NCBI GenBank assembly: GCA_964016885.1
Contig: OZ024742.1
Location: 189,534,001 to 189,598,000, forward strand
Origin: Eledone cirrhosa
Lineage: Eukaryota
Length of the DNA stretch: 64,000 nt
Direction: 5' to 3'
Each line of letters starts with the position of its first letter. Within the stretch, counting starts at the first letter, position 1. Position numbers and translations under genes: made by a program. This document shows, one piece after another, positions 33,890-58,124 of the stretch. The notes under the pieces were generated by a model. That model saw only the letters and a list, made by a program, of their open reading frames with translations. It searched no databases and was not told the origin of the DNA.

Positions 33890-34135
33890 TGGTTAAGTTT
33901 GTTTCTAAAACAGCCAGTACAACACAAGTTAGAAATAAAGCAGTGAAAATGGAAGTAGATAAGACAAAACAAAATGGCAGTTTACACTTTTACTTTATAT
34001 CTCCTGATATTTCGGGGATAAGAGCCCTTATCAAAAGATTTAGAAAATACAAGTTAAAAGTGTAATCTGTTTTGTTTTATCTTTACTTATGTTTCCATTC
34101 TTTAGTTTTAACTTGCATTATACTGGCTTAAACTT

Positions 34136-34137
<2 letters not shown>
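33890..34137. mobile_element. Inverted-repeat PLE remnant with decayed hammerhead
   Basis: Diverged inverted arms ~33890-33993/34052-34137; minus strand UUGAUAA-GGG..CCC-C-GAAA-UA-UC; related fragment at 18290-18385. Confidence 0.5.
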
Positions 34138-34169
<32 letters not shown>

Positions 34170-34606
34170 TAGTTCCTTACATTGCACAATTTCTTTTCCA
34201 AATGAATAATTTCATTAATTCCTCTCTTGTTCTTCACACATCTTAAAGCATCTCTCACTCTAGTTTGACAATTTCTTTTTTCTGACTTGACAGCTTGATA
34301 TTTGCATGCATTTAAGAAGTAGCACCACTTTTAGCAAATTTTTTGGCCCCTTGAGACACTTAGGTCATCCTTCTTTCAGTTAGATCACACATCTATATAC
34401 AAGAGTTGTATGCAATTAAGTCCCATTTTTACTAACTCCCTTCAAATATTCTATTTTTTTCTAATGCTGCTTGATGTTTTTATCCTACCCATTTGTCAAT
34501 GCTATATATATATACATATATCTATATATATATATAAAAATATATATACATATATATATTGATATACATATATATTTATATATACACACACACACATATA
34601 TATATA

Positions 34607-34671
<65 letters not shown>

Positions 34672-35484
34672 TGTATATATATATTGTGTTAGTTGCATGC
34701 TGGCTTTGAATATATTATGTATTATCACACTATATATTTTATTTATTTTTTTACTGTTAGAATGAATTAAAAATAATAATTATATTGTAAAGAATATAAC
34801 ATAATGTATATAAGTTATGTATTTTAAATATATTCTAAATAATAGTAATTTGAATTTGTATAATATTACATGAAAAATATCATATATTAAGGCCTTTTTT
34901 AAATAATTAGAATTTTACAAACAATTCTCTCCCACTAAAAAAAAGTGAAGACAACCAATGGAAACCCTGCTGAATAACAATCTTAGACATTTGTTTCATG
35001 CAAAAGATAAAATAGTCTACCTTATACATAAATACATGCTAAACTAATTAACATACTTCACAGCATAATCAACTGATTAGTTGCTGATAACTATATTAAA
35101 CAATATTCATAAAATAAGAATGATACATGTGAACATATACATAAATTTATGTATAAACATACATGTATACACATATATATATATATATATATATATAAGG
35201 ATATATATATAATTCTTATTTTATGAATATCGTTTATATATATAGTATAAATAAAGTTTCATACACTTAACATGTGTGTGTGGCTATTTGTTTTCTAGTC
35301 CAGTTATGGCCATCACTGTATAGTGGAGGAGGCTCTTCCAACTTGGTCCCTCATCAGGCACTTGGACACAAAAAAAATGTTAAGTGTATGAATTCTTATT
35401 TATATTAAATAAGTTCTCTTGCAATAGATTGAGCATTATTTTCCTTTTATCTATGGATATCCTATATACATACATACATACATG

Positions 35485-35520
<36 letters not shown>

Positions 35521-37429
35521 AATGCAGTATCTGTTCTGGCTCCATGCACTGGGAGTTCAAATCCTGCTGAGAACATCTTTGTCTATCATCCTTCTGGTGA
35601 CAATAATTTAGGTACTAGTCAATCTCTGGAGTCAATTCTTCTTCTATCTCACCTTCCATCATTCTCTATTTATCTTTCTCGCTCTCTTTCTTGTCCCCTT
35701 TTCTCAATTAGCTACACTACACTGGGAAAAGAGCTGGAAAAATCCCTCATAGCATTCCTTTATCCTGGAATGAAGAAGGTTCTGTCTCATAGAAAATCTG
35801 TTATGCTACTGGAACTAGCCTCAAATGGTCTGATGTACATCATTTGATATCACCTACTTTTTAATCACCTTCTTTATACTCAATTATTTGGGATCAGCCT
35901 TCTCCACTTCTTCCCAATCATTCATCTTTCACATGATCCTTCCATATTAATAACCATTTGGCATTTCTCTACCCAACTACCATTATCCATATGCATCACA
36001 TATCCATACTAGCACAGTCTTCTCTCTTGCCTTACATTCTACATCTGATTTATCTTATATCCAATATTTTCCCTCTTAACTAAGTTGTTCATATATATTA
36101 TTACATATCCAGTAAAGCTTGCTCATTTCATTTCTTTTCAGCTTTCATATTCTGTGTTCATATTTCATTGTCATACAACTTCTTATTTTATACCAAGTCA
36201 TATCTACATTTCATTCACATAATGGATGTCCTTGTTGTCAACAGAGGTAACTGGTCCCTGAACATTTTCCACTCAATTCATAAATTGGGTTCGACGTTTT
36301 AAGAACACCTGCCATAACTGCTAATTATGTCACATAGGTAACAGAAGCTGTAACCTACTTCTTAGGAATTTGCCAAGTTTTTGTGGGTACTCCTATTGCC
36401 AAGTTCCCCTTTACATCTACTACAAGCCAAGTCTTTGCCAGCCCATCTGTGATCTTACTGTATCTCTCATTTACCGGCAACAGCCTTTCCCATTTAACTG
36501 CCAGGCTCTGTTCGAATGACCTGGTTGTAAAATATCTTTAGATATTGTTTTAATGTCATCCAATGTGTTATAGAATCCATGAGATTAAGAAAAATTATGA
36601 AGTATCAGTTTTATATTAAAGAAAACTGTAAGAGTATCAGTTGTATGTTATCAATTGTAAGTGTGACTGGTTGTTAAAAGAAGAGTAGCTGTATATGGTA
36701 CATAGGTAGTAAGAAACTCTTGGGAGAGTTGGACAGCAGAAGGTCTCCAAAAAAGATCCCCCCCCCCAACCACACCACCTCAAGCGAGTGTTTTGGCCCT
36801 TAACTTCTTATACTCTAAGGGGGCTGGGCTGCATCCAGGTCATGACTCCTGAGTGCCCTTCTGTTGACATTTAGCCATTCAGATATTGGAGATTTGTTGT
36901 GTATTTAAACTGTATGGAGATTTTGTTGACAGGATCTAGCTGAAACTCCTCTCCAAGCTGAAACTCCTCTTCAAACTTATATTTAAATGCTTTCTTGAGT
37001 TTGGAAAAATAGTATTGGTAGTCATGGTAGCAGTGAGACATTAACAGCATCACTGGTGCTGCTACCAACGATACAAACCATGACTCACTCGCAGTTTCTT
37101 CCTTTAGCATGTGTTAAAATACAAAAACTATGCTTCTCATGTGATCTGGTGGTCGTTTTTGTTTCTCCTCTACTAGATGCAGCTATATCTAAATCCTAAA
37201 GTCTGTCTCAAGCCAAGAGACTCATCGGCCAGAGCTTATCAAATATAATTAAGTATTCAGTTTTTCCATACTGAATATGATAGCAGTGGTGTACCATCGT
37301 CTTTCCTTGTTGAGTCAGAATTCTGTCTTTACCAGGTTTGCTCTTAGGTTTCTTGATTCTTGGCTATGAGAATTAATTTATATATATATATATATATATA
37401 TATATCATTATTCATTATTTAATATAAAA

Positions 37430-37530
37430 ATGGCTTCTACAAGACTAGAACTGTTTCATTTGTATGAAATAATCTGGAATGCCCTGATGATTTCATACAA
37501 ATGAAACAGTTCTAGTCTTGTAGAAGCCAT
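37430..37530. repeat. Perfect 41-bp-arm palindrome containing CUGAUGA...GAAA
   Basis: 37430-37470 is the exact reverse complement of 37490-37530; a single-arm copy lies at ~50540-50600. Confidence 0.85.
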
Positions 37531-38606
37531 CTCTATATTAAATAATGATGTTTTTACTCTACAAATGTTTGGATCTACATATATACATATCCCTGAGCAG
37601 AACAAACTAGTTTTGGACCATAAAGCTTGTGGGTTTCTGGATAACTGCCCAGTATGGCCTTGCTTGAAGGTGGCACTACGCAAACACACACACACACACA
37701 CACATATACATATATATATATACACACATACACACACACACACTCAGGACATAAAGAGCCATAATAAATGCTGCAAAGCATTTTGTTTGACTCCCAAATT
37801 TACTAATCCACCTACCTTTATAGAGTCAATATAATATTTGTTATGAATAGTGACTGTTTATTTCGGCATAAGTTAAGTTCAAATATGAATATTTTGAGTT
37901 GAAGATATGTGAACTGTGTATGCCTTGTAGAAGTTGCTGGTATAATATCACATATTGTTATTGTCATTCTTGTGATAATGGTGTTGGTGGCTGCTTTGTT
38001 GCTGATGTCATTGTTATTGTTGTTATTGTGTATGTTTGTATATATTGGCTGTTTCAGAAAGAGTTGGGGTCTGATTATCAGAAGATGATGAACCGCAATT
38101 TGGAGTTCAATCATTATTTTATATAAGTGTTGGGACAAATCATTACAATTATATATAATTATGATATGCAAATCCTGTTTTATTTAATTTTTCTGATGTG
38201 ATGAAATATTTTTTGTTCTATAATCCAACCACCACCATCATCATGATCGTCATTCTTTTATGTCTGCTTTCCATGTTGGTGTGGATCAAATAGAGTGTAA
38301 TGGCTTGAGATTTGACAGACTGCAGAATCATGTCTCACTTGTATGATCCATTTTTGCCATAATTTCTACAGCTGGATACCCTTCCAAACACTAACCACTT
38401 TCCAGAGTGTACAAGGAGTATTTTAACATGGCACCAGAGATACTGTTATGCTCTAAATAATTGTTCATTGCTTTTGTTCAATTGTCACCCCTTTACAAAG
38501 TGTACTGGGTGCATTGTAGCATGGTAGCAACACTACTAAGTATGTCTTAAATCTGACAAGAATAAATGCTACTCACTATCCTGCATCATATCTTTTTAAT
38601 CATTAA

Positions 38607-38827
38607 CCCTTTAGCATTTACATTACTCTATATTTACTATTATATTTTCACGGTAAGGTCTTTACCTCCCATAATTATCTCACATAATATCAAATCTATG
38701 AGATTTTGACATTATTTATTTTGAGAACAACACATTAACATAAGTAAGAGCAGCCTGTTATGGCTAGTTTGAACAGAAAGAGATGAGAGAATTCTGGCCG
38801 GATACGGGCAGTTTAAATGCTAAAGGG
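38607..38827. mobile_element. piggyBac-type MITE
   Basis: TTAA-ccctttagcattta ... taaatgctaaaggg-TTAA: perfect 14-bp TIR and TTAA TSD. Confidence 0.85.
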
Positions 38828-41399
38828 TTAAATATCTAACCAGTTTAACAGTATTTTTCAATTTTATCACACCCTCCCTCAGTTTTCAAGTATCTGCTGT
38901 ATATCAAGGGCAGAATTTAGTCCTTTGTTCAAAGATACAGGAGAGGATATAAAATTAAAATACGCCAGAACCATTAAACTACTTTGTGGATCTCCTTTAA
39001 AAAAAAAAATAATCAAGCATCATTCCACTTAGTCATTTCTTAGCCAGTTTGTCAGCCTACAACATTTATCTGTAATTAACATATCAATACAATTTGAAAC
39101 AATGATATCACAGCTAGTCATTGAAAGCTTCTATAATAAGCTAGCACACATCATATAAAAAATACAGAAGCTCTATGGAATTTTTTCTAAAGCAAAATTC
39201 TACATTGATAAATAAAAAAGAGTTTCTAAATCTCAATATATACTAGATGTAAAACAAAAACAACAGCAAAATCTCTCCATTCATTTCATCATCCATTCTT
39301 TACTCTTAATTTCTCCTCACATTACACTTTATCTTATATTTGCATACATTCTCTTTATCTCTCTTCCATATACATTCTCATTCTTATCTTGTTTTCTTCT
39401 GTCTCTCTGTATCTCTCTATCTATCTTGACTTTTTCCTTCCTCAATCATTTTTTTTTCATATATCAATGTCACCTTTTACTTTCACTTTGTTTGCCTCCC
39501 ACTTTCTCTCAAATAATTAACTCTTTCATTCTTACTTCTTACTTTTCATCCCCTTGGGTTCTACTGTCCTGAAATAATGGTTGCTAGCAGTTTGTGGGGA
39601 AGTGAAAATCAATTAAATTAAATCAACTCCAGTACTTGACTGGTATTTTATTGCATTAATCCCAGAAGTAATGACAAAATAGAATTGGATTTGAACTCAC
39701 AACATAAAGAGCCAGAACAAATACCCCAGAATATTTCTGTCTGAATCTCTAACAAATCTGCCAATCCACTACTCTCAATACTAATAATGGTTTCTGGGGA
39801 AGGGGAAGTCAATTAAGTACTTTATTTCAACCTCAGAAGACTGAAAGACAAAGCTATCTTTGGTGGGATTTGAACTCAGAATCTAAAGAGCCAGAACAAA
39901 AAGTATAAACCATATTTTTTCAACACTCTAATGATTCTGTCAATCCATTTCTCATCTAAGAAGTAGTTAAACTGTCTGGTCAAGCTTTGTTTAGCTGACC
40001 AAAAACTAACTCATGAACAAAGATTTTCATATTTTATAGATGCATATAAATAGAAATTTATATGCATCTAAATATTTTCTGTTCTTGTGTGTTTGTGTAT
40101 CTATTGACAACCTTCAAAGCAAGTGGTGATATTTCTTTATATCCCTTATAGACACTGCAGTACACTGGTTCAATGAATGTCAGCAGCGTATATCATTCTT
40201 AAAATAAAATATGGGTTGATGTCAGGAATGGCAGCCATCTATAGAAAAACTGCTTAAAAAGTCTCACCTAACTCACATTGGTATAGAAAGCAGACATAAA
40301 AATGATGATGTATTTGTTTACGAACATGACAAATATTATCTCATAATGTGAAAGTAATATTTTGTCTGTTAAAATAAAGATTAAAACAGCTGTTAATGAG
40401 GCATCAAACAGAAACTATACAACAGATTTGGTAACAAATCTACTAATTTAGAATTTTATTAAAAATAGTTTATGAAGACCAAGCAATTTAATTAAATTAT
40501 GCTGAGAATATTAAAACTGGATTTGTAGTTGTGATATCTATCCACAAAATACATAGTCAGTACTGCGTAGAAATACATTAGCAAGACATTCTTGAAAAGT
40601 ACAAAATAGCACTAGGATTGTGTTGCATTAAACATTAAAAATTCCTTACATTTTTACAATGATCTGTACACTAGTAAAGATACTTCAAACATTTAAATTA
40701 ACAAACACATTTCTAGACATTTTCTACTACATCATTACAGGATGTTAAGAATTAATGTGAATAGGAAGAGTAAAAGCTTGAATCAGAAACAGATTCTAAA
40801 AGATTCTAAAGCTGTGATATTGATTAAGAATTTAGCAATCAATACAAAAGAATTTGTTTAATGTATGGAGAAGTGACCTCTGGTGGCCGCAGTACTCTAC
40901 AACCCAGCCTAACAATTCATAAATACTTTAATTATCAGTCAATTTTTCTCTCTCCATCTCTTCTTTTGTCCCTCCTTCTCCTTTCATTTCCCCCTCTCTT
41001 TTTCCCTCTTTCTTCTGGTCTCCATCCTCTATCCCTCCCACTACCTCTCTTATACACACACACACTTGAAAGAAGAAACTCCATTCTAGATAAAGGATTA
41101 GAATTTTAAACAATTTTCTTTTTAGAAAAATTAGAAAAACAGGTCATAGTATTTATTATTGTTATGTTCATAACATATGTTAACATGGTATACCTAGACT
41201 AATGGTTCTCAACCCTTTCACAACCATGATGTCCTTTTGTTTAAATGAATGTTCTCATGGTCTCCTTATGCTGCTCCATTTTCTCACCTTGCAGATTGCT
41301 TTGCAGTGTGAATAGAAGGAGAGAAATTTTTATTCTTAAAGATTAATGGATACTCATTAGTCTGTGTATATTATGTTTTTAACAAAGTACTGCATGAGC

Positions 41400-41915
41400 T
41401 GGTGCAATAATGCACCAGCTCCAGCACTTAGTCATCAGATGAAGCGAAGGAAGTAGATGTAAAAGCCAAAATTGCTATCTTCAGTTTGATGTTTATTCAT
41501 AATCTTACCTATGGTCATGAATGTTGGGTAACAATCACAAATATAAGCAGCCGAAATGGGGTTCCTGTGAAGGGGGTTTTGAATTATGTTACTCAATAGA
41601 TTTCATAGCTCAGAGTTCAGGGAGTTGCTCAAGGAAGAGTCACTGCTTATTTGCATTGAAAGATCACAGTTCCAGTACTATAGTCAAGTGTTTAGAATGT
41701 CTAAGGAAAGAATTGCTGGAAAGACTTTATGGGCAAATCCAACTAGCAAGCGACCCACAGGTAACACATGAGCAAGATGGTTGGACAACTTTTATGAGCT
41801 TAGCTGGTCTTGCTTTGGGGATTCAGCCAGATCATTTGAAGATGGTTGCTTCTGATAGGACCTTCTGGAAGGTGAGTCTAAGAACAAGATCCCCATGACC
41901 CTCACAAGAATAAGT
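41400..41915 (+). mobile_element. Degenerate non-LTR retrotransposon (RTE-like) 3' fragment
   Basis: Frameshifted remnants LTYGHECW, AAEMGFL and IERSQFQYYSQVFRMSKERIAGK..KRPTG. Confidence 0.65.
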
Positions 41916-42626
41916 GAATGAAGGAGAAGAAATAGAAGAACGAAGTAGTTGAAATTGCAACGAAAAGAGAGAAGTGTTTAGATTCAATAGGGTGTTTATA
42001 ACAAAGTACTGGACATTGTTATAGTGTGACAATAACAAGTGAAAGAAAGATATGCAACACAAACACATGCCAATTACTACATCACTTGAAACCCAGGGGC
42101 CAAAAACCTCATGTTTTTAACATGGTAGGCCTAGTTCAATGATGAAAACTGCAACATAATTTAAGTTTATGAGGGAGGTTGATGAAAAGTGAAGTTAACC
42201 TGGGCAGATGTTGAACTCAGAGCAGAAGGGGATGAAACAAATACTGAAAGGCATTTTGTCCTACGCTGTAACAACTCAGCCTGTTCAACACAATAAATAT
42301 GACTTTTATTTAGATATTTTTTTCAGTAGTAATACTTATTTTATTTTGATAGAAAAGGATCTGTAAGTGTTGTAAAATAAAATATAAAATAATTGATCTA
42401 GACTGTTAAGATATTATATATATTATGTATTTATTTTAATATGTAGCTTCATTTTATTTTCAAGTGTGTCATTTACTTTTTAGCTATACTTATAATATAT
42501 CTGTATATGTGTGTGTGACTATGTATATAATTATATATATATATGTATGATTATATATATACACAAATATGTGTGTGTGTGACTATGTATATAATTATAT
42601 ATATATATGTATGATTATATATATAC

Positions 42627-42667
<41 letters not shown>

Positions 42668-42774
42668 TGTATATACACATACACACACACACACACACAC
42701 ATACACACATATATATACACATATATATACACATATATGTATACATACATATATATATATATATACATATATGT

Positions 42775-42805
<31 letters not shown>

Positions 42806-42808
42806 CAT

Positions 42809-42865
<57 letters not shown>

Positions 42866-43116
42866 TACATGATATATATATATATAGGAGGGGACTGCAT
42901 GTCTTTATCTGAGTACACATCTTTCTATTATATTTATCTTTCTGTCTTTTTCTTTCTCAATGACTCCACTCTTTCTCTTTTTGTCTCTCTACACACATAC
43001 ATATACACATACAGCAAGTACCTGGAATGTGTAATGAATGCTTCTCTACATGCATCCTTAGAATTATTAGTATTATTATAAAGAAATCATTATATATATA
43101 TGAATATATATGTATA

Positions 43117-43166
<50 letters not shown>

Positions 43167-43288
43167 GATATATATATATATATTTTTATATATGAATATA
43201 TATATATATATATATATTCATATATATATATATATGAATATATATATATATATATGAATATATATATATATGAATATATATATATATA

Positions 43289-43338
<50 letters not shown>

Positions 43339-43494
43339 TATATATATATTTTAGAGAGTTAAACAAGATTCAATGAGTACATCAAAGAATGAGTTTTACA
43401 GTAGATTGAAAGCACTCTACAGTAATATATTTTCCGGAGCTATTAATATTAAATTCAAATATTAACAAAATAGATGTTCTTGTGATCAATTAAA

Positions 43495-43558
43495 TTTTAT
43501 TATACATATTTCAGAGGTACTTGAATCAAGTTCAACAGTACGTCCTCATCAGATAAAA
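43495..43558 (-). ncRNA. Minimal hammerhead ribozyme (left arm)
   Basis: Reverse complement of the 45420-45483 motif, differing in the stem II loop. Confidence 0.7.
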
Positions 43559-45419
43559 TAAAATGATACATGGCATACCCTGACATGTTAGATGGTTAAG
43601 ATTTAATCAAAGAAGTGATTAACTTATGAGAAAACTCAATATTTATACCCTGGAAATGAGAACATGGGAAAACGTAATAGAATCAATAGAGAGGTTGTGA
43701 GTAAGAAAAACATTGCTTTAATGTAACAGTTATAGAGTTTTTAAAGATTGAAATACTACTGTAGGACTATAGAGGAAGACTATAGATATCTGGAGTTATA
43801 ATTTTTTTAGTTTTTAGTTTGAGAATGCAACTGATAGATAATTAAAGAGAGGGGGAGATAAAGGGGAGTAATTTATGCACAAATATTCTTCAGACACATA
43901 TAAACATGTATAGCCTTGACAGTTAAATTTCAAAATATTTAATTTATGTTATTTTAGGGCAACAAATCAAAATTTTAGGTTTTAAAAGTTGATGGTTATT
44001 TGTGTTATAAATTTTATAAATTTTATAAATGTGTTAAATTTCTAAAATTCAAAGTTTTATGAAAACAAATTTAAAGGATTTACTAGGCCGGCAAAAGAAA
44101 AATATATACTGTTCAATATTCACGCAAAGGCTTTTGGGATATTATTAACTTTGATCCAGACCTTTATTTTTCTATCTCTCTTTTAAATATTGTTGTGATA
44201 TCTAACCTGTACATTTTTACGGACCTTATTTTGAACTGTGGATCATTCATGCGTTTACATTTTTATATATATCTATGTATTTTATAGTTATGCAAGTATG
44301 AATTTATTATCTAAGATTATAATCGTTATCCTTTACTAAATGTATACCGTCTCATTAATACTTAGTATATCTCTCTATATGCAGTTGGTGCAAATATGTT
44401 TATATTGTATAATAACATAATCATAATTATAGTTCGGTATATCTCTGTATATAGTTTTGTGCAAATATGTTTATAATGTATAATAACAGAATCATAATTT
44501 TAGTTTGGTATAACTCTATATATAGCTTGTGCAAATATATTTATATTGTATATTAACATAATCCTAATTAGAGTTCGGTTCTTCCCTAGAAGGCTGAACT
44601 AATGTAGTGATCTATTATAATATATGAACAAATAATAAAAAATAATAATTTATAGTCCTCTTATTACGATCAATGCACACATATATATATATATATATTT
44701 ACAGCTGAAAACTCTGGTTTAATTGTTAAACTTTAGACACTATAACTATTTAACAATAAATTCCTTGATAATTATAACTGTAAATACTTCATAAACTATA
44801 CATACGGAAAATGTTGACACTGTTACAAGTAATATTGTTAAAGATTACCTTTGCGTGAATATTGAACAGTATATATTTTTCTTCCACGGGCCTAGTAAAT
44901 CCTTTAAATTTGTTTTCATAAAACTTTGAATTTTAGAAATTTAACACATTTATAAAATTTATAAAATTTATAACACAAATAACCATCAACTTTTAAAACC
45001 TGAAATTTTGATTCGTTGCCCTAAAATAACATAAATTAAATATTTTGAAATTTAACTGCCAAGGCTATACATGTTTATATGTGTCTGAAGAATATTTGTG
45101 CATAAATTACTCCCCTTTATCTCCCCCTCTCTTTAATTACCTATCAGTTGCATTCTCAAACTAAAAACTAAAAAAATTATAACTCCAGATATCTATAGTC
45201 TTCCTCTATAGTCCTACAGTAGTATTTCAATCTTTAAAAACTCTATAACTGTTACATTAAAGCAATGTTTTTCTTACTCACAACCTCTCTATTGATTCTA
45301 TTACGTTTTCCCATGTTCTCATTTCCAGGGTATAAATATTGAGTTTTCTCATAAGTTAATCACTACCTTGATTAAATCTTAACCATTTAACATATCAGGG
45401 TATGTCATGTATCATTTTA

Positions 45420-45483
45420 TTTTATCTGATGAGGACGTACTGTTGAACTCCATTCAAGTACCTCTGAAATATGTATAATAAAA
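45420..45483 (+). ncRNA. Minimal hammerhead ribozyme (right arm, sense to Kv2 pre-mRNA)
   Basis: ttttat-ctgatga-gga c gtac tg ttgaa ctcca ttcaa gtac c tct-gaaa-tatgta-ta^-ataaaa; predicted cleavage after 45477. Confidence 0.72.
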
Positions 45484-45671
45484 TTTAATTGATCTCAAGA
45501 ACATCTATTTTGTTAATATTTGAATTTAATATTAATAGCTCCGGAAAATATATTACTGTAGAGTGCTTTCAATCTACTGTAAAACTCATTCTTTGATGTA
45601 CCCATTGAATCTTGTTTAACTCTCTAAAATATATATATATATATTCATATATATAGATATATATTCATATA

Positions 45672-45738
<67 letters not shown>

Positions 45739-45776
45739 ATATACATACACACACACACATATATATATATATATTG

Positions 45777-45815
<39 letters not shown>

Positions 45816-45835
45816 TGTATATACATATATTTATA

Positions 45836-45887
<52 letters not shown>

Positions 45888-45891
45888 TATG

Positions 45892-45976
<85 letters not shown>

Positions 45977-46316
45977 GATGTGACAAATTAATTTAGCATC
46001 ACTTTCAGTCTTTAGAATTTATACACTGCAACTTATTTAAATAACATTTATTTTATGCTATGCTACATTTCATTTTTTTTTTCTTACTTCCTTAATATCA
46101 TTTATCACTGTTTACTTATGCATATCAACTCTAAACTATTCTCTGATAACAGCATCTACATATATATTTATATATATATATATATATTCAGCTATGTTGA
46201 GGTTACTGAATCTTGCTTATAACATAATGATTAACAGCAATACTAAACTCTTTCTTCATATTAGTGTATATTAAAAATCATTCTAATATAGATCATTATT
46301 ATATAAAAAGGATGGG

Positions 46317-46498
46317 CGGTGGATTGGCAGTATCAGTAGAGGGTCGGACGCCATGCTTTCCAGCATAGTTACGTCCCTTTACGATCTGAGTTCAAATCCC
46401 GCCGAGGTTGACTTTGCCTTTTATCCTTACGGGGTCGATAAAATAAAGTACCAGTAATGAACTGGATAATTGCTGGCCTTGTGCCTAAAGTAGAAACA
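46317..46498 (+). mobile_element. SINE family A, full length
   Basis: A/B boxes; 18-bp TSD attattatataaaaagga at 46295-46312 and 46499-46516. Confidence 0.9.
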
Positions 46499-46668
46499 AT
46501 TATTATATAAAAAGGAATTCTCACTATATCTCAATATAAAAACAATATTGCTAATATTTGACAATAAAAATAATTAACATTAGAATATATGAATTGAGAC
46601 TTAATATTTATTGTGAATTATTTTGAAATAAAATTGTGTTTATGTGTGTGTGTTTGTTTGTATAAATA

Positions 46669-47288
46669 CATCATCATCATCATCATCGTTTAATGTCCAT
46701 CTTCCACACTTGCATGGGTTTGGACGGGAATTTTCCCACTTGAGGCAAGATTGGTTGATTTGCTCGCATAGGACTGTCTGGCGGGTTTTCTACGGCTGGA
46801 TGCCCTTCCTAACACCAACCACATTTACAGTGTGGACTGGGAGGTTTTTACCGTGTTACCTACACGGCCACATTACAGCGTGGACTGTGTGTTTTTTTGT
46901 CGTGACACCTACACGACCTCATTTGTTTCAGCCTGGATGTTGTGGTACCAACATAACTTTACATTGAAAGGGGTGGTGTGGATGGGGTGGGGTGGGGGTA
47001 GTGGGACGGGGTGTATTTTTGTTAGAGGTGCCTACTGACTGACTGTAGGTTCGCTTTGTACTTAGGCAAGGCGGGTCTTCTGTATTACTGTGTAGTGCCA
47101 AAGATCTCGGTCCAGTGACATTGTCTTGGAGAGGTGTAAGTGTGTGAGGCTGGAATTTATCAAGTCGTCCCAGGTTTTTCTGGTTCTGCCTACTAGTCTT
47201 CTCTCGAGTAAACAGCATCTGTTCCCTCTTATTCCTAATTTCTCCCTTAGTTTGTTTATGCTTTGCCGTTCACGTATATTACTGTTAC
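46669..47288 (-). mobile_element. RTE-clade LINE 3' fragment with long 3' UTR
   Basis: LREKLGIRGNRCCLLERRL..GRTRKTWDDLI..DRDLW C-terminal remnant; (ATG)n tail at 46669-46687. Confidence 0.7.
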
Positions 47289-48209
47289 ATATATATATGT
47301 GACATTTTTCGTGATGCATGGTATTGCTGGCCATAGGCAAGTCCCTAGCAAGACTAAAAAGCCATGTCCGTTATGTTCATACTTAAGTATCAAATGATGG
47401 GATTATTTGAAATCTAGTTGCAGCCATCATAATATATATATATATAAGCATAGATGATCCTGTAACTCTTGAGGGAGTCATACGGGTGCTGTATTGACAT
47501 AGGGCATTTTTAGAGCATTTTAAAATCTTGTGTGGCCCAATCCTCTCCAGGTCTGACATACATATATATATATGTACAAACCCTATTGATAAAATATCCA
47601 AATTTTGTCTAGGAAAAGTGTACGTATTTGATGGGGTTCAGTTTCTAATTCCCTTTGAAAAGGCCCCTTTACCTCCACACACATAGCCCAGTAATCTGCC
47701 TTCCATGTATGGAATGTTTCTTCTGGAAAGGCTCCCAGTTCCACCTTTAGAGTTTATATGTTGTCCACTCAGCTCTCAAAGAAATCAGAAGAAGCTATGT
47801 TGACAAATAAGTAAAATACTTTATATCAGCTATGTTGAATAAGACTGGATATTGCCATGATGCAGCTGCCGGTTTTGTAAGGTCCACAGATATGGTTGCA
47901 CTGAAGAACATCATAAAAGTGTTAGAGGACTTCCTGGCAGTACTCCATTGTAATTAGTTATCCTTCTGATGTGTATTCATGACGGACAATGCCTCTGAAA
48001 TTGAAGACAGTCTTATATGTAGCTTCACTTACAGTTCTTCACACCAAACATTTGTCTCACTCAGATTATTACTTTCCACAGGAAAATATATAGTTGGATA
48101 TTTTTTCAACAGACATCATCTATGTGCGTACATGTATGTGTATGTGTGTAAGTGTGTGTATGAGAAAGAGAGTGAGTGAGAGAGAGAGATAGATAGAGAG
48201 AGAGAGAGA

Positions 48210-48278
<69 letters not shown>

Positions 48279-48884
48279 TTTATCTGTATCGACATTCCTG
48301 AGGATTACATTAAGGGTGAAGGCTATATGTGACTCTGGAATACTCAGCCACAAAAATACTAATAGAAATAACTGGAATACTGAACATTGAAACTGACAGC
48401 CTCCATTTACCTCATTTTATATTGACAAGCATGTGTATATACATGAATGTATGTGTGTGTCTGTATATGAGTGTATTTATAGAGAGAGAGAGAGAGAGAG
48501 AGTTGAAATAGATTACCTATATATATAATATATATATAAATGAAAGGTATAGAAAACATTGTAGCAAAAAGCCAAGAGTATTCCATAATATATAATATAT
48601 ATATATATATATATATGTATATATGATGATGATGATGATGATGATATATATATATATATAATATACTATATTATATATGATGATATATATGTATATGAAT
48701 ATATATGATGATATATATGTATATGAATATATATGTATATATATATGAATATATATATATATATAATATACTATATTATATACTATATAATATATTATTT
48801 ATACTCCAGTCCTACAAATTGTAGAGTGCTACTTATCCGATATTTGCATTGCTTTATTGTGCTACAATAAAACTCACCTCCTAC

Positions 48885-48971
<87 letters not shown>

Positions 48972-48976
<5 letters not shown>

Positions 48977-50300
48977 TAAAAAGCAAGAGTAGAATAGCAC
49001 AGAAGTATTTTTAAAGAATCTTTTTGTCTGTTTTCTTTAATCTGACAGAATAAATATTACTTTCTATATTTGTTACATTAATTCAATTTAAGTTTTATCA
49101 AATATTATCGGTTTCAATTGGTATGTCAATCTTATCTAATATTAAAAAAGTCTGTTCTCATATTCTGCGATCAGTTAGGACATATGTGAATTTTCACTCA
49201 AGATCTCTTCTTATATATATATTCTTTATGATGGTGTGGTGGTGAATGTGAAAGCGGTGTTTTACAGGTCAGGATTCAATTGATTTACTAGAAAATTCTA
49301 ATGATTTAAATAGAAAATTCCCTTTCTATTCAAAATATAGGCTCTTATGGCATTTTGTTCTCCTGTGTTATGTGTGTGTAGGTGGGATTCCATTGCATCA
49401 AGATTCATGTTTTTTAGGGTTTGTAGATAAAACCAAGAAAAAAAGAGTAGATATAAATATATCATCATCATGAGACGCTAGCATGGGTTATTAATAGATA
49501 TAAAGATGATAGAAAGTAAAAAGAATAGATATAAATATATCATCATCATGATATGCTAGCATGGGTTATTAATAGATATAAAGATGATTGAAAGTTTTAT
49601 TGAAAATACAATGAAAGATATCTAAATAAAACTGGATAATATTAATGTAATAAAAAACATTTTTCTGCAAATTTTTTTTTCAATCATGAAGAATTGATTT
49701 TGATAGTGCAATGTGCTAGAAAAGTTGTGATTTTTCTTTTGTCTTGTGGTGTGTGTGTGTGTTAATAGGGTTCCATTGTGTCAAGAGTTAAAGTTTATTT
49801 GGGGTTTGAAGATAAAAACAAAAATAAAAGAATGAATAAATAAAAAACAAATATAAATTTTATTTATTATTTTCATTCTTTTCTTCTAGTTTTTACCTTC
49901 AAACACTAAATAAATTTGAACTCTTCAACTCTAGTAAGTTTGGACGTTAGTATAGCAATTAAATCCTAAACGTTTGAACCCTACTGCTACCCTCACAACC
50001 CCAGCTTCATAAATAATATATATAAAAAGAATTATTGAGAGAAAATTCACATATGTTCTAACTGCTCACAGAATATGAGAACAAACCTTTTTAATATTTG
50101 ATAAGATTGACATAGCAATCGAAACTGGTAATATTGAAAAAATTTAAATCCACTTAATGTAACAGTTATAAAAATATTTATTCTGTCAGATTTTAAAAAA
50201 AAAAAAAAAAGGATCTTTAAATATTTCCAATTTTCTAATTTTACTTTTTACCCTTTTTAACCTTTGATGTGTATGGAATGTTACCAACTTTTCCAACTAT
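48972..50300. mobile_element. Old PLE-derived element with diverged inverted arms and decayed hammerheads
   Basis: 48972-49235 is inverted at ~50005-50255. Plus strand 50090-50138: uuuaauau-UUGAUAA-GAUUG acauag CAAUC-GAAA-CUGG-UA^-auauugaa. Nested palindrome at 49780-49925. Confidence 0.7.
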
Positions 50301-50312
50301 ATATATTTATAT

Positions 50313-50820
50313 GGTGGATTGGCAGTATCGGTAGAGGGTCGGACACCATGCTTTGCAGCATAGAGTTACGGCCCTTTATGATCTGAGTTTAAGTCCCGCC
50401 AAGGTTAACTTTGCCTTTCATCCTTATAGGGGCGATAAAATAAAGTACCAGTCATGCACTGGGGTTGATTTAATCGACTTTCCCCTCCCCCCGAAAATTG
50501 CTGGCCTTGTGCCTATATGAGAAACCATTATTTTATATAGAAATGGCTTCTACATGACTAGAACTGTTTCATTTGTATGAAATCATTGGGAATGCTAGGT
50601 GAAATAGAGAGTCATTGGTACTTATGAGTTTCCTCGGTGGATTGGCAGTATCATTAGAGGGTCGAATTCCATGCTTTGACGTATAGAGTTACGGCCCTTG
50701 CCATTCTGATTTCAAATCCCGCCGAGATAAACTTTGCTTTTTATCCTTGCGGGGTCAATAAAATAAAGTACCAGTAATGCACTGGCTAATTGCTAGCCTT
50801 GTGCCAAATGTAGAAACAAT
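50313..50820 (+). mobile_element. Two SINE family A copies (50313-50527, 50635-50820)
   Basis: A/B boxes and conserved body/tail. Confidence 0.85.
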
Positions 50821-50864
50821 TTATAAATAAAGATATATATATATATCATTATTTTCATCATTGA

Positions 50865-50898
<34 letters not shown>

Positions 50899-50995
50899 TT
50901 CTTTATAAATTGTTTCTACATTTGGCACAAGGCTAGCAATTACCCAGTGCATTACTGGTACTTTATTTTATTGACTCCGCAAGGATGAAAGGCAA

Positions 50996-51037
<42 letters not shown>

Positions 51038-51039
<2 letters not shown>

Positions 51040-52087
51040 GCGTTAGCTAACAGTGGCTTCTCGCAACCTATCACTTACTCTCCCACTAACAACAACAGCA
51101 ATAAGAAAATAAAGTGTAGCAATAGACAAACTATCTGGTTCTCTCCTCCCTTCTCACTCAACATTAAAACCAATGTAAGCAAAACATTTATAGCCCTCTT
51201 AGATAGACACTTTCCCATAGGTCATAAATACTGCTCCATCTTTAACCGACACAAAGTAAAACTAGGATACTCCTGCACTAAGAACATGAAAGCCCATATC
51301 ACCAACAGCTCTAAGAGCAACACCCCACCAGGGTGCTCTTGCCGTAAGCCCAAAGCTTGTCCCCTTCAACAGCAATGCAACACACCCACTGTAATTTATG
51401 AAGCCGTGGTCACTTCCAACCGACTAAATCAACCACAGGAGGTCAAATCCTATGTGGGTATGATGGAGGGCCGATTTAAGGAATGCTTCCTGAACCACCA
51501 GTTGACCTTTAGGTATCCGGACAGACGTTCATCCACGAAACTCACGAGCCACGTATGGTCTTTCAAGGACTCAAGTATAGACTACTCCATTCAATGGAAA
51601 GCCATCACTAAGTCCAAGCCATATGCAAGGGGCAATCCATCGTGTGGACTATGTATTGATGAACGAATAAATATTCTAAAGAGATTACATAATAGCAATT
51701 GCCTAAATCAAGAAATGAATCCTTCACACGTTGTCCACACATCTGGAAACACCTCTTACATAACTACAAAGCTCCGGATTGAATTACAACAACATCCTAA
51801 TGTTCTTATCAACTAGAAACTTTCAGACTTTCACAGTTATCTCCCTTACACCTCTCGCACACAATTTAGTATTGCCTGAGTGAAGTGACCATTTTTGCGC
51901 ATGCGTGTTCATACGGTTGTCCTTCCTGTTCCGTATAACCATGTCCATTACGAGCTGAGGATCCGCTAAGGTGAAACAATTGTTCTCGGTATGGTGAACT
52001 AACTGTTGCATAACCATTTCTACCTAACTCGTCCCATGAACTGAGTGCTCTACCACTACGGATATTACCTTCCTGTGTTCTACCACT
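51038..52087 (+). mobile_element. 5'-truncated Penelope-like retroelement (linker + GIY-YIG endonuclease remnant + 3' pseudo-LTR)
   Basis: Open from 51040: IWFSPPFSLNIKTN..LLDRHFP..IFNRHKVKLGYSC..CSCRKPKACPLQQQC..VIYEA..YVG..FKECFLNH..CGLCIDE..LN. A 1-nt frameshift near 51710 restores RNESFTRCPHIWKHLL, with TGA at 51780. Flanked by (TA)n. Confidence 0.85.
51945..51994 (+). ncRNA. Hammerhead ribozyme in the PLE 3' pseudo-LTR
   Basis: CCAU ua CGAG-CUGAGGA-U CC gcuaa GG U-GAAA-CAAUUG-UU^-CUCG gu AUGG; palindromic stem III loop; predicted cleavage after 51984. Confidence 0.75.
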
Positions 52088-54134
52088 ATATATACACATA
52101 CATATATAGTGTAAACAAATTTACATGAAGAAGAATTAAGTACTCACTACCAGTGTAGTGTGAAATATTTGCATATTGGAACTGTAAATATATGAACTAA
52201 CACAGTGTTACTAATAGTTTCATGACACAGTTAAAAGCTCAATCAATCTTTGGACAATATATAACTAACAACATTCCACAACATACAAATAGTTTCCTGC
52301 CATGTACTGAGTTAAGGATAATAGAAGAACTCTCACCAAACCAATTTCACTGCTTATAATTTCTCTTTTTAACCTTTTTGGCACATATTTCTGATGTCAT
52401 ACATTGTAACTTGAAAATTTGAAAGTCCCAAATGCAGAAAATAATTGTAATAACAGTAAGTCACAATGAATTCTTTCTGAGAAAACTAGGTAAATTCCCC
52501 TTAAGAGACTAAAATAATTTACTTAATTTTCTCTTTTACTTATAGTGATCATTTCATATTACAGTCATTTTCAGCAATTGGGACTCATACATTCACATGT
52601 CAAGCTCTTCCAGTGCTTTTCTAATACATAAGTATCCATATTTGAATTTATTAATAAAGGGTTTAGAGGGATTCACTGAAATTATTAATTATTTCATTAT
52701 TAAGATGGTATTTGTAGCATAACTTAATAAGAGGTTCTTATATGAAATGTTGTTGCAAGATTTTAATCTGAACAGAAACACTTTAAGTTAGGGGGTTTTG
52801 TTTCATACAACCATGAGTAGATTTGGGAGGAGTGATATCAGAAGGCTAAATTTGTCAATCCAAGGAAGACAACTTAAATCAACTTAAATAATTTTATCAT
52901 CATGTTATATATTTTGTAACAGATACCATAGAGTCATGGTGCATGACAGGAAACTAGCAGTATCTCCCTCTAGTTGCATCATATGACTACAGGCTGTTTT
53001 GTGGAAGGTCACTAGTACTATATTAACTGAATATTGACTAAGGTTATAAGCTTTTCACGAAATTGCATGAAGTTGCTAGGATATTGGGCTTTCAATAAAA
53101 AAAATGTTGGTTTCAATTCTTAGACCATGTAGCAGATTGTTTCCTTGATTGTTTCCTTGTATTTCATTTCATGTTTCTCATGTTCATCAACTAAAAATGA
53201 GTACCAAATGGAATTTGCTTTCTAGGCAGGGAGAAATCTTGTATTCTCAGTCACTTAATGCTTCATGAAACTTGTGTAAGCTCTGGCCCATCTACAAGCA
53301 TAGATGAAGCATAGATGTGAAAACAATGACTTTCTGATAAATCTTTTAATAAAGATTTATCAGAAATGTATACATTGATTAAACCAATTTATTATTATAT
53401 GAATGTATGATTGTATGCGTGCATCCATGTATGTATATATGTATGTATGTGTGTATGTAAATGTGTTAGTATGAATGTATATATGTATGCCTGCATTCAT
53501 GCATGTATGTATGTATCTATATATACATGTGTTTTGTACATATGTTTGTTTGTATGAGTGTATGTATAGGTGCAGGCATGTGTATATGTCTATGTGACTC
53601 TCAAGAGCATGTTTGAAATATAAAATATACTATTTTATTTCAAAATGAATTTAAAACTAAAAATTCTCAAATTGATTAAGGTTTATTAGTTTATTTATTG
53701 TTCATAATTATTCCAGTTTGTCGTAGTAGAACTTAGAATCTAACCAAAATTCTTAATTATACTAATGTTGGTTGCATAATTTAAACTAAGCTTTAGTTTG
53801 CTTGAGCACTCTTAGTCCAAAGTTCAAATTATTTTTCCTTTTTCACATATGTTAGATTGTCACTTTGATCGTTGATCACCCAGTATTCATATATACATTA
53901 TGAAATATATGCTTTGAATTATGTCAACTTAAGTTTGACAAACTATAGATGTTGCAATGGTCTGTAGTTTCAATTCATGCTTGACTAAAACTATTTCATT
54001 GATTAAACTATGCCTCTTTTTTTCTCTCTCTCTCTCTTCCAATTTAACAGGTTTTAAAAAAGTAATTATGATAATTTTAATGTTAATAATAAAACTGATA
54101 ATGACAATGCAAATAATAATAATGACAATGATAA

Positions 54135-54169
<35 letters not shown>

Positions 54170-54296
54170 TTAATAATAATAATAATAGGTGTGTATTTAT
54201 ATTCTCCCATAAATGAAAACTCTGAACAATTCCAGGGAAAATCCTTTTATAACTTGCCTACTCATGAGTTAAATTTTGTTCTTTGGGTTTAATATA

Positions 54297-54321
54297 AGGA
54301 TCGTCGTCGGGTAGAAGTCAT
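54297..54321 (+). promoter_or_regulatory. Candidate ECS for outer-pore codons 57622-57646 (GDIYPTTIL)
   Basis: aggatcgtcgtcgggtagaagtca is the reverse complement of exon tgacatctacccgacgacgatcct at 23 of 24 positions, including 19 contiguous Watson-Crick pairs. Confidence 0.85.
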
Positions 54322-54881
54322 GGATGGTAGCAAAGAAATTGACCAAAAGATTTATGTCACCTTTCTCAGGGTGATACATTTATCAGTCATGTTTCTTTTC
54401 GCTACCATACATGGGTTATGGGATGAAATTTTTCTCATGATTAGGAAGTTTGTCTCACCTCCACCCGCTAATGTTTGAAATATATATTTAAAAAAATATA
54501 TTTTCTGTTCCTTTTATTTAAATTTGATATCGAATCTTACATTAAAGATGTCATGATAAATATGTAGTTATAAATAATTTGTGTTTATATGTCACTGTTA
54601 AATTTTGCAGAAATTTTAAGATTCTATAAAATGTTACTTCGTCTTCCAGTTACATGTATTTTTTTAAGCCATAAACCTGAGGACTTCTTTAGCTGTTTAT
54701 TTTTTTTTTATTTCCACTTGAAGACATTCTTCCGAATTGATTGTAAAGTTATATTCTACATATTTGAATTTGTATATATACCTACTACATTTCAATACAT
54801 TAATTACATATAAACAAAACATAGCATATATATATAAATATATAAATATAAAAATCTTATATACATATGAACATAGCACTA

Positions 54882-54936
<55 letters not shown>

Positions 54937-55189
54937 CATATATATATATACATATGATATAATATAATATGAATATGTGTATGGGTGCTTCTGTGTGTGT
55001 ATGTGAGAAAGAAAGATAAAAAGGGTAAGAATAAATGTATACAGACTCTACTTATATACACTAACTTCTTCCGAGCAGTCATTAAATCAAATGTACTTTA
55101 GGTGTTACTTTCTACATTATCGGGAAAGAAAAATGAATTGAATATGTTTTAGTCTTCTTAACATTCAAAATATAGTCACAATAGCTTTT

Positions 55190-55210
55190 GAAAACATCAT
55201 TGATGGACCT
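55190..55210 (+). promoter_or_regulatory. Candidate ECS for S5 codons 57473-57493 (GLLMMFL)
   Basis: gaaaacatcattgatggacct pairs with exon aggtctattaatgatgttttt at 21/21 positions (3 G.U wobbles). Confidence 0.75.
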
Positions 55211-55557
55211 TGAGAGGTGATTTACCTTCATCCTCTAAATATGACAAAATACAACCTAAACACTTTCACTTGCCCTTCCAGTCAGCTCCTCCCGCTTTGG
55301 TGCAAGAAAGACAAATGTATGACTTTATTACATTGAATACAATCATTAATCTAGCTTCACTTGAGTGGGAAGGTGTTCCTTATATATATATCTATATATA
55401 TATATATAAGGTCTGAAGATCACCAAATAGATTTAGAGATATATTATCTCCAATAAAGTAATCGGCATTCAGTATGAAACCAGTGGGTAATGTAGTGTAA
55501 TCTCATTACTTTGTAACCATACATTCATATATATATATATATATATAGGTATGTATG

Positions 55558-55589
<32 letters not shown>

Positions 55590-55643
55590 TATATATATAT
55601 ATATGTGTGTGCATATATATGTATATATATATATATGTATATA

Positions 55644-55695
<52 letters not shown>

Positions 55696-55723
55696 TGTGT
55701 GTATATATATGTATATATATACA

Positions 55724-55755
<32 letters not shown>

Positions 55756-56413
55756 GATAGATATAGATATAAACAGATAGATAGATACTAGTTAGTTGAA
55801 TTTTAATAGAAAACTTATTCTCACATACAACAATATTTTAACAATTATGTTAAACATACTTCACTTATTTTGCCTTAAAAAGTAGAAAGAACACAAAACA
55901 GAACTTGCATCTAACTTCTTAAAATATTAGATAATCCTGCAAGTATGAATGTTCACACTTTAGATCTACACATATACAACAAACTTATAGATCAAAATTT
56001 AGTATTCAGATACCCTAAATTTATATATATATTTTTTTTTGCAGTACAGCTTGAAAACTTGTGTATAAATGTTTTTATTATTGGTGTAACCATATATATA
56101 TTTTTCCTATCAATGGCTTTGCTTATATTCATATATATTGTTTATTTATTTTGGTTTGTTTGTTGTTGTTGTTATTAGTTGTTATTGATGTTGTTGTCAA
56201 ATTTGTTATCCCTGCTTCTGGTTCTCTCTCTTCCAGCTTTTTTATTAGTGATTTACTTCAAATTTTCAGACTTCTTTTTTTTCTTAAATATGCTTATTTC
56301 TATACATATTTATATATATATATACATATACATATATATACATGTGTGTATATATTTATGTATATGTATTTATATATTCCCATACATAGATATCTGCTAT
56401 TCTGTGGATTGTC

Positions 56414-56461
56414 AGCGTAACAGCTAGCACACCTCTTCATGTACAGCATCCACTACCAATA
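56414..56461 (+). promoter_or_regulatory. Candidate editing-complementary sequence (ECS) for S6 codons 57656-57700
   Basis: Intronic agcgtaacagctagcacacc-tctt-catgtacagcatccactaccaata pairs antiparallel with exon tgttggtagcgtatgttgtatatg-t-ggtgtgctagttattgcgct (about 41 pairs including G.U), with C56421 opposite A57693. Confidence 0.85.
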
Positions 56462-56505
56462 TTTAGTGGCTAAAGCTGGCTGCTATTTAAAAATATATAT
56501 CAAAA

Positions 56506-56521
56506 GCCGTCTCCTACTGTC
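56506..56521 (+). promoter_or_regulatory. Candidate ECS for selectivity-filter codons 57608-57623 (TVGYG)
   Basis: gccgtctcctactgtc pairs with exon gacggtaggatatggt at 15/16 positions (3 G.U, one U.C mismatch); collinear with the 56414-56461 block. Confidence 0.6.
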
Positions 56522-56545
56522 CCTTTGGATGACCCACAAATATTT

Positions 56546-56557
56546 ACTACTACTACT

Positions 56558-56604
<47 letters not shown>

Positions 56605-56730
56605 AACTACTACTACTACAACTACTACTACTGCTACTACTGCTACTACTACTACTACTACTACTACCATCAACAACACTACCTCTACCACTATAACTAC
56701 TATTGCCACTACTACTATTACTACCATCAT

Positions 56731-56772
<42 letters not shown>

Positions 56773-56820
56773 CATTATTACTACTACTACTACTTCTACT
56801 ACTATACTACTACTACTATC
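56546..56820. repeat. (ACT)n microsatellite
   Basis: Direct reading; lies between the candidate ECS cluster and the exon. Confidence 0.95.
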
Positions 56821-57047
56821 AACAGCATATTTTATATATATGCTACTTTGCTTTCAACTGTCTTTCTTCCGAAATTTTTTTCAATACTCCTTTACCCACT
56901 CCTTATCTTGTCAAAGTCATGCTTTGGTGTGAGTAACAACTTCCTATTATTTATTTAAGTCCCTAATCTAGGAGTATCTTTTAAGAGATCCGTTCGTTAA
57001 CCCTGTGTATTTTTTCAGCGTTACCAGAATTTGAAAACATTTTTCAG

Positions 57048-58124
57048 GTCTTGGCCATTGTGTCCATTCTCTTCATTGTCCTGTCTACCGTGGCGCTAAC
57101 ATTAAACACAATTCCTGGGCTCAAAGGTGAAGGAGAGCATGAAGGGGCTGATAACCCACAGCTTGCAATTGTAGAAGCTGTTTGCATTGGATGGTTTACC
57201 TTGGAATATCTGGGACGATTCTGGGCCTCCCCGAATAAGTGGAAGTTTTTCAAAGGACCTTTGAACATTATAGACCTATTGGCAATCATGCCTTATTTCA
57301 TTTCCCTAGGATTGACTGAGACCAACAAGAGTACGACGGAACAGTTCCAAAACGTCCGCAGAGTGGTGCAAATCTTTCGAATAATGAGAATTCTGCGAAT
57401 TCTAAAACTTGCAAGACATTCAACTGGTCTGCAATCCTTAGGGTACACTTTACAGAGAAGTTATAAAGAGCTAGGTCTATTAATGATGTTTTTGGCCATT
57501 GGAATACTCTTATTCTCAAGCCTTGCCTACTTTGCGGAAAAAGACGAACCAGGAACTAAGTACGTTAGTATCCCCGAAACATTCTGGTGGGCTGCCATCA
57601 CTATGACGACGGTAGGATATGGTGACATCTACCCGACGACGATCCTGGGAAAAGTTGTTGGTAGCGTATGTTGTATATGTGGTGTGCTAGTTATTGCGCT
57701 TCCAATTCCAATCATTGTCAATAATTTCGCCGAATTTTATAAAGATCAGATGAGAAGAGAGAAAGCATTAAAACGTAAGGAGGCTCTCGAGCGGGCGAAG
57801 AGGAATGGAAGCATAGTCTCCTTCCACTCCGTCAATCTGAGGGATGCCTTCGCCAAAAGTGTCGACCTGATGGATGTTGCCTCCGAAGTTCCTAGAAACG
57901 ACTGGGATACAAACAGCGTGGAGACGAAATCCATGAGTTCACCACCGCCTTGTGTGATGCGGGGATCCAACCCCAATACACCCAAGTTGAGTGGGCAAGG
58001 AGGAACGACAAACTTCAACTGCAAGGAGAATCAGGAGAACCCCAGCAACACCAACTTGTTGGATATAGATGAGGAGTCTTTGCATCGGATGACGACCCAA
58101 GCTTCAACTGATACATCAATGCAG
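57048..58124 (+). CDS. KCNB (Shab): Kv2/Shab channel exon encoding S1-S6, pore (TVGYGD) and proximal C-terminus
   Basis: Acceptor ttttcag|GTC at 57047/57048 joins in phase 0 to give AAR|[15 protein letters not shown]4 is [14 protein letters not shown], the pore is [13 protein letters not shown]6 has the Kv2-type PIP motif, followed by [14 protein letters not shown]. Donor CAG|GTGAGT at 58124/58125; 1077 nt = 359 codons. No further confident exon in the window. Confidence 0.97.

Follow-up and report, generated by a model that had tools for sequence, protein, structure and literature searches.

Intronic editing-complementary sequences (ECSs) are known for Drosophila Shaker (e1-e3), paralytic and GluCl-alpha (PMC2606942; PMC4299485; bioRxiv 10.1101/2023.05.29.542744; these and the papers cited below are referred to for the parts consulted). 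The element described here, which lies in the Kv2/Shab gene of the octopod Eledone cirrhosa, resembles them in several respects. It is a short conserved intron element with a coding partner about 1 kb or more away and an imperfect helix suited to ADAR, it is one of several elements in the same transcript, and the predicted arrangement is pseudoknotted, as in paralytic. Unlike the fly ECSs, it lies in a mollusc Kv2 gene, within the intron preceding the edited exon, and its counterparts are found across phyla and not within one insect order. Furthermore, the GluCl-alpha and paralytic ECSs are backed by deletion tests, whereas the Kv2 element is known from predicted pairing. The second system for comparison is the mammalian Kv1.1 I400V hairpin (Rfam K_chan_RES, RF00485), in which the same S6 residue undergoes the same Ile-to-Val change; the equivalence of the two residues is given in PMC3391646 and PMC6453909. 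However, Kv1.1 is intronless and edited through an exonic hairpin, whereas the partner strand in Kv2 is intronic.

The recoding of Shab/Kv2 itself is well described. The trio Tyr-to-Cys, Ser-to-Gly and Ile-to-Val (PMC6453909; PMC9989829) corresponds to codons 57630, 57663 and 57693 of the window, by which we mean the whole 64,000-nt stretch analysed, and the Kv2 Ile-to-Val change has been described as the sole recoding site known to be common to metazoa (PMC6453909). The consulted parts of these two papers report sites and levels of the trio and no guiding structure; it is a predicted structure that the window supplies. The structures behind the squid Kv2 edits were unknown at the time of Ingleby 2009 (PMC2606942), and our literature search, in which coverage of the primary papers was incomplete, found no description of an intronic guide for Kv2/Shab. 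It must be mentioned that genome-wide Drosophila ECS predictions, noted in PMC5705066, may include Shab. Thus, the Ile-to-Val edit in octopus, squid, cuttlefish and insects and intronic ECSs as a kind are already known, and what we did not find in the literature is the guide structure for the Kv2 edit. We propose that the stretch 56403..56461 on the forward strand is the intronic ECS of the Kv2/Shab S6 segment and would guide the Ile-to-Val change at A57693, a reading to which we give a probability of roughly 85%.

The host gene is present in one copy in the genome. Its exon 2 (57048..58124, forward strand) codes for S1-S6 and the start of the C-terminus, finds Kv2.1 as top match among solved structures (E 8e-130) and yields a protein 99% identical to that of Octopus sinensis. 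The nearest Kv subfamily is Kv2.1/Shab, and the gene consists of a T1 exon and an S1-S6 exon, as expected for this membership. At most diagnostic residues the protein has the octopod state; codon 57138 encodes His in the window and in decapodiform-like sequences, and Gln in three Octopus species and Argonauta. Together with the Ser at 57663, this suggests a position of the animal outside the latter group. Exon 1, with the T1 domain, ends at 11509 with a donor right after it, and RNA contigs from three runs (X4, X15, X16) join it directly to 57048. Hence, the S6 element belongs to a single intron of 45.5 kb (11510..57047, forward strand), located 587-645 nt before its 3' end and in the same transcript as the edited exon. 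Two other features of this intron were observed. Its last 54 nt (56994-57047) are open in frame, contain a second AG at 57017-57018 and encode a peptide near-identical to the upstream extension of the decapodiform-like ORF P0260, and the own-species assembly X4 includes an intronic contig of 56887-57045; either the end of the intron is conserved here or the segment contains an alternative acceptor. An open frame of 275 codons at 50989-51813 has a Cys-rich stretch and is presumably a retroelement remnant.

The sequence-only reading, from which the present analysis started, identified A57693 (forward strand) with the known Ile-to-Val recoding position of squid Kv2 and Drosophila Shab, and this identification holds. 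The site maps to squid residue 597 and fly I681V, the equivalent of Kv1.1 I400V. In the squid Kv2 cDNA protein P0256 (CAA74748.1), codons 57630, 57663 and 57693 correspond to residues 576, 587 and 597 and read Cys, Gly and Val; the same cluster includes five exon-type decapodiform-like ORFs, which have Tyr, Ser and Ile, and the protein of a spliced contig, P0259, reads Cys, Ser and Val. We take codons 57630 and 57693 to be the Y576C and I597V of the 1997 squid paper, with which the numbering agrees. RNA runs X15 and X16, which come from distant cephalopods and consist of RNA without a DNA control, have G at both 57631 and 57693. Among published data, Ile-to-Val is tabulated for O. vulgaris, O. 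bimaculoides, Sepia, Doryteuthis, fly and bee (Porath 2019, PMC6453909, Table 2), and O. bimaculoides reaches 75% for Ile-to-Val and 44% for Tyr-to-Cys (Zhang 2023, PMC9989829, Table S5). A57693 is thus edited in the squid cDNA, P0259, X15, X16 and the published Octopus data, and unedited in the main contig of the own-species RNA assembly X4. The latter has 0 differences over 57047-58124 and therefore no majority edit, in a sample of unrecorded tissue whose contigs keep majority alleles. Kv2 edits are reported to change channel closing (PMC5705066; bioRxiv 10.1101/714394), where the labels I579V and I632V are used. Among 256 homologs with a scorable pore, Cys occurs at the pore Tyr in 14 and Val at the S6 Ile in 10; since some of these are genome models (Cimex, chelicerates, myriapods), the edited states are hard-wired in some lineages.

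The pairing at the site was originally described as a helix of 20 positions (56414-56433 with 57681-57700), and a position-by-position check reproduced it as claimed: 17 of the 20 positions are Watson-Crick pairs, two are G.U (56418, 56423), and the single mismatch is C56421 facing A57693, the first base of the S6 Ile codon preceding Ala-Leu-Pro. That an A.C mismatch favours ADAR editing is likewise in line with the literature (PMC10713624). The predicted duplex is larger than this helix and joins the 59-nt element to the S6 helix codons at 57655..57711 (forward strand) through 49 pairs (24 AU, 19 GC, 6 GU) at -64.0 kcal/mol, and the 3' splice site falls within its 1,195-nt loop. In a fold of 56300-57800 it dominates, with core pair probabilities of 0.88-1.0 and C56421 unpaired. 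Within the helix core (57663-57705), A57693 is the sole unpaired one of 8 exon adenosines (unpaired probability 1.0 vs 0.00-0.08), and a change of C56421 to U would gain 4.3 kcal/mol for the duplex. A second A.C mismatch, with A56452 of the intron strand opposite C57665, was observed and, if edited in nascent RNA, could report duplex formation.

Several comparisons place this pairing beyond chance. The S6 target and the element reach -64.8 kcal/mol, compared to a mean of -22.5 (sd 5.6) and a best value of -44.2 for 3,182 other sense tiles of the window and a best value of -46.3 for 3,184 antisense control tiles, i.e. approximately 20 kcal/mol beyond all 6,366 controls. Ranked among 13 exon tiles against both strands of the 1.5 kb upstream, the S6 tile was first of 26 (z -7.0). 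Moreover, none of 60 synonymous recodings of the S6 peptide paired equally well anywhere in the whole 1.5 kb upstream against which they were scored (mean -38.0). The element itself is single-copy, with 1 match in the genome. By these modelled energies, an imperfect duplex beyond chance would cover the edited adenosine. Two other searches did not single it out: a repeat search of the window returned only TA-microsatellite pairs among the 25 longest matches listed, and with a lenient local aligner the signal was not distinguishable from noise. The element also has a weaker and mutually exclusive partner in the S1-S2 loop, where 57117-57172 pairs with 56389-56472 at -42.4 kcal/mol; this partner is transcribed about 500 nt earlier and takes bases that are bulged in the S6 duplex. 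In two termite-like loci (L011, L014) a neighbouring intron block pairs with the same loop, but this alternative showed no consistent position in relatives and could be due to chance.

In the mechanism that we propose, the duplex would form in the unspliced transcript, in the interval between transcription of S6 and excision of the 45.5-kb intron. ADAR would bind the imperfect helix of roughly 50 pairs and prefer the sole exon adenosine opposite a C, resulting in the Ile-to-Val change, and the paired A57663 would be edited less than A57693. The resulting I-C pairing would close the mismatch, splicing would discard the guide, and the new Val, lining the inner cavity, may alter closing of the channel. 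A further intronic stretch, 54297-54321, would act likewise for the pore Tyr, and the two helices would cross as a pseudoknot.

Two more adenosines, A57663 and A57675, had been assigned to the adjoining helices as possible targets. Both indeed lie within them, but each is paired with U (U56454 and U56442, respectively) and without a mismatch. For A57663 (forward strand) the proposed Ser-to-Gly edit agrees with the available data: the squid cDNA has Gly, the edit is recorded for both Sepia and squid, and the two Octopus encode Gly in the genome (Porath 2019, PMC6453909), and vertebrate Kv2.1 has Gly at this codon, as had been stated. The base is A, and the residue Ser, in the window and in decapodiform-like ORFs, and a hard-wired Gly is present in O. 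sinensis, O. vulgaris and O. bimaculoides as well as in Argonauta. Its conversion to G costs the duplex just 0.3 kcal/mol, as G.U. The Ile-to-Val edit suggested for A57675, in contrast, found no support and was rejected; both edited transcript-derived proteins (P0256, P0259) keep Ile, and the site is absent from the Porath 2019 table as well as from the 40 of 100 RNA differences that were listed. The squid cDNA protein has more differences of the A-to-G type, at 57075, 57370, 57372, 57390 and 57928 (in S1, S4 and the C-terminus), none of which has a strong intronic complement in the 92-kb scan described below.

That ungapped scan compared exon 2 with positions 11531-104000, i.e. 92 kb of the window and four downstream stretches, and its four best hits all lie within 2.8 kb upstream of exon 2. 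The top match, with a score of 45.7, is the pore complement 54297-54321 (forward strand), in which 24 of 25 positions pair with the pore-loop codons 57622-57646 and thereby cover the Tyr-to-Cys site A57631; it reaches -46.2 vs -21.2 for antisense (rank 1 of 32) and continues into a long hairpin at 54323-54413 (z -4.8). The two halves of the S6 element score 36.7 and 31.3. The remaining hit, at about 55190-55210 (55188-55210 in the scan, forward strand), forms 21 contiguous pairs with the S5 codons 57473-57493, and its score of 34.3 makes it a weak complement, because the best antisense control reached 31.5; no edit was found at these S5 codons in the data examined. An intronic hairpin follows each of the three complements, matched by 0, 4 and 2 of 200 shuffles. 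The one directly 3' of the S6 element (56464..56485, forward strand) is small, at -9.4 kcal/mol and equalled by 2 of 200 shuffles, is without a listed change in the relative discussed next, and may have a role in the editing context. Judged from the order of the elements, the S6 helix would cross the pore and S5 helices and give a long-range pseudoknot if they coexist, which is a matter of geometry and not of a folded model; the pore and S6 targets are 9 nt apart. In relatives the pore complement ranked first in 0 of 11 loci (ranks 2-30 of 32; several have less than 2.1 kb upstream).

For conservation over a short distance, 56386-56543 was compared in four runs; X4, X5 and X9 gave no contig here, and X12 gave one, from an organism close to the window (0.66 of exon words shared) that we call organism C. 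This contig has no listed change across 56391-56460, hence both C56421 and U56454 are kept, and one base is missing at 56461; 3' of the element, the changes cluster in 56487-56502, with one substitution and four deletions. Of the three differing letters of X12, two are unlisted. With the comparison covering the intron side, no compensatory change was seen at this range. The comparison is suggestive of an element conserved above its 3' flank, bearing in mind that it concerns one contig and has low power.

Much more distant counterparts were found among 80 Kv2-like metagenome loci. Of these, 45 non-cephalopod loci (12 picked after screens and 33 more) entered a tile test, in which the S6 tile was ranked against other exon tiles and antisense; the other 35 had no S6 in one frame (2) or short upstream DNA or partial matches (33). 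An S6-complementary element was detected in six loci of three lineages. L006 and L008 are bivalve-like, grouping with Ruditapes and Mya; L012, L019 and L021 form one clade, unplaced in a quick tree, with no named close relative in a protein search and about 70% identical to nemertean proteins; and L022 is an arthropod outside the insects in that tree, probably crustacean-like. In all six the S6 tile ranked 1 of 26-28 (z -3.5 to -5.8), the element begins 847-1,255 nt before the corresponding splice site, and the synonymous null gave 0 of 60 each, compared to 11-58 of 60 in seven other loci of the same test. Their 60-nt exon targets differ from that of the window at 11-18 positions, and the window exon, which pairs at -64.8 with its own element, reaches only -29 to -44 with those of other loci. 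At 15 exon positions both strands have changed and still pair, a count that is descriptive because each duplex was fitted per locus; the tile and synonymous nulls are the tests. Taken together, the element appears to be conserved above flanking intron in organism C, and its pairing is maintained through change in the six distant loci.

The expected conservation of C56421 in orthologues was confirmed in part. Organism C keeps the base, and a C stands opposite the S6 site in L012, L019 and L021, where, as in the window, this A.C is the single mismatch among core adenosines; L006 and L008 instead pair the S6-site A with U, so that the A.C appears dispensable for the element itself. L022 has G at the S6 site, paired to C. 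In this respect, two near-identical unspliced arthropod contigs (L022:2365 and L023:764) have 2 differences in about 1,290 positions, including a G/A at the S6 Ile codon, which represents either an edit in pre-mRNA or a polymorphism in contigs that may be DNA or RNA.

The other 39 tested loci were not positive, and six of these rank first weakly (z -1.9 to -2.4). Among the others are divergent paralogs, genomic-Val loci, vertebrate-like Kv2 (no S6 element in the tile test for L024 and L025), two uninformative loci scored on a second pore match (L028, L030), and L013, whose 719 nt of upstream DNA end short of the element position in its twin L012. No significant S6 element emerged from seven insect-like loci, which represent a group with known editing at the S6 site; in the synonymous null, 17, 17, 35 and 58 of 60 recodings were as good in four of them, and in five of them, scanned across up to 6 kb on both sides, the best pairing exceeded antisense by no more than 5.5-6.4 kcal/mol. 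Near -1,340, a termite-like block reached ranks 1-2 in the tile test but failed the synonymous null and was rejected.

The claim that this is the specific ECS for the S6 edit is supported by the duplex beyond chance, the C kept in a relative and the distant counterparts, from which we infer causation. Among other explanations, the one that survives best, although it is unlikely, is that the duplex is real and selected for something else, for example the timing or choice of splicing where the 45-kb intron ends, with editing as a by-product or in need of other elements. The position of the 3' splice site inside the loop and the weaker S1-S2-loop partner would suit such a role, as would the bivalve-like loci, which keep the duplex with an A-U pair at the site. 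In addition, the consulted parts of Zhang 2023 (PMC9989829) list the shared Shab edit in flies, ant and octopus only and none for oyster or Aplysia, which were sampled as whole animals. However, the two best intron-exon complements of the 92-kb scan coincide with conserved recoding sites, and in the window and three distant loci the single core-adenosine mismatch is an A.C at exactly the edited base.

It is marginally less probable still that an exonic hairpin of the Kv1.1 type directs the edit and the intronic complement is accessory. Human Kv1.1 is edited at the equivalent residue through such a hairpin, and 57612-57725 of the Kv2 exon scores 65 bits against RF00485, which exceeds the gathering threshold of 51. 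But the consensus hairpin itself was not recovered, as 9 of the 24 consensus pairs, counted from the alignment, are non-standard in the window, and the segment folds at -26.8 kcal/mol, which is at shuffle level (z -0.39; 65 of 200 shuffles as good), into a minimum-energy structure different from the consensus. The model also matches 17 of 20 Kv pore loci, including vertebrate-like Kv2 and genomic-Val loci, hence its score tracks the coding sequence. In the regional fold of 56300-57800, the intron duplex prevails over the exonic hairpin. Two other Kv genes of the genome match RF00485 with fewer broken pairs than Kv2 (L091:1558-1671 with 97 bits, L088:1564-1677 with 92 bits), and these stretches are candidates for true exonic hairpins. 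Finally, that the complementarity arose by chance, or was left over neutrally from an inverted piece of exon, is very improbable and largely refuted: the element is among the few G+C-richer islands of the A+T-rich intron and for this reason tends to come out on top as partner for several exon tiles, but the rank, the margin over all control tiles and the synonymous null speak against such an origin, as do its retention in organism C and its recurrence in three other lineages, where it tracks their own synonymous codons.

Besides the guiding function as such, the distant counterparts raise the question of descent. We consider it tentatively, with belief and doubt not far from balanced and doubt slightly ahead, that the S6 guide is one inherited structure, an intron-exon duplex that Kv2 already had when molluscs and arthropods last shared an ancestor and that has stayed 0.6-1.3 kb ahead of the same splice site with both strands changing, and that in octopods it belongs to a pseudoknotted array of three elements. 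The elements of the distant loci resemble one another in sequence, and between L006 and L008 the top intron match covers the element, with its exon distance shifted by about 390 nt. This likeness cannot tell descent from convergence, because each element must match a conserved exon; the intron and distance that they share, and a bulge on the intron side close to the middle, speak for descent.

An element of 59 nt with one targetable C would make the edit removable with protein and ADAR untouched. Moreover, it would represent a natural intron-containing substrate for cephalopod ADARs, and missing intron sequence has been suspected behind failed in vitro edits of squid Kv1.1 (PMC10278661). With a named element, the choice between ancestral and convergent editing becomes answerable from genome alignments and bivalve ganglion RNA. 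If the guide is indeed inherited, the edit would be expected in neurons of bivalves and other invertebrates, where it is so far unreported, and the Ile-to-Val changes of cephalopod and insect Shab would be homologous and not convergent.
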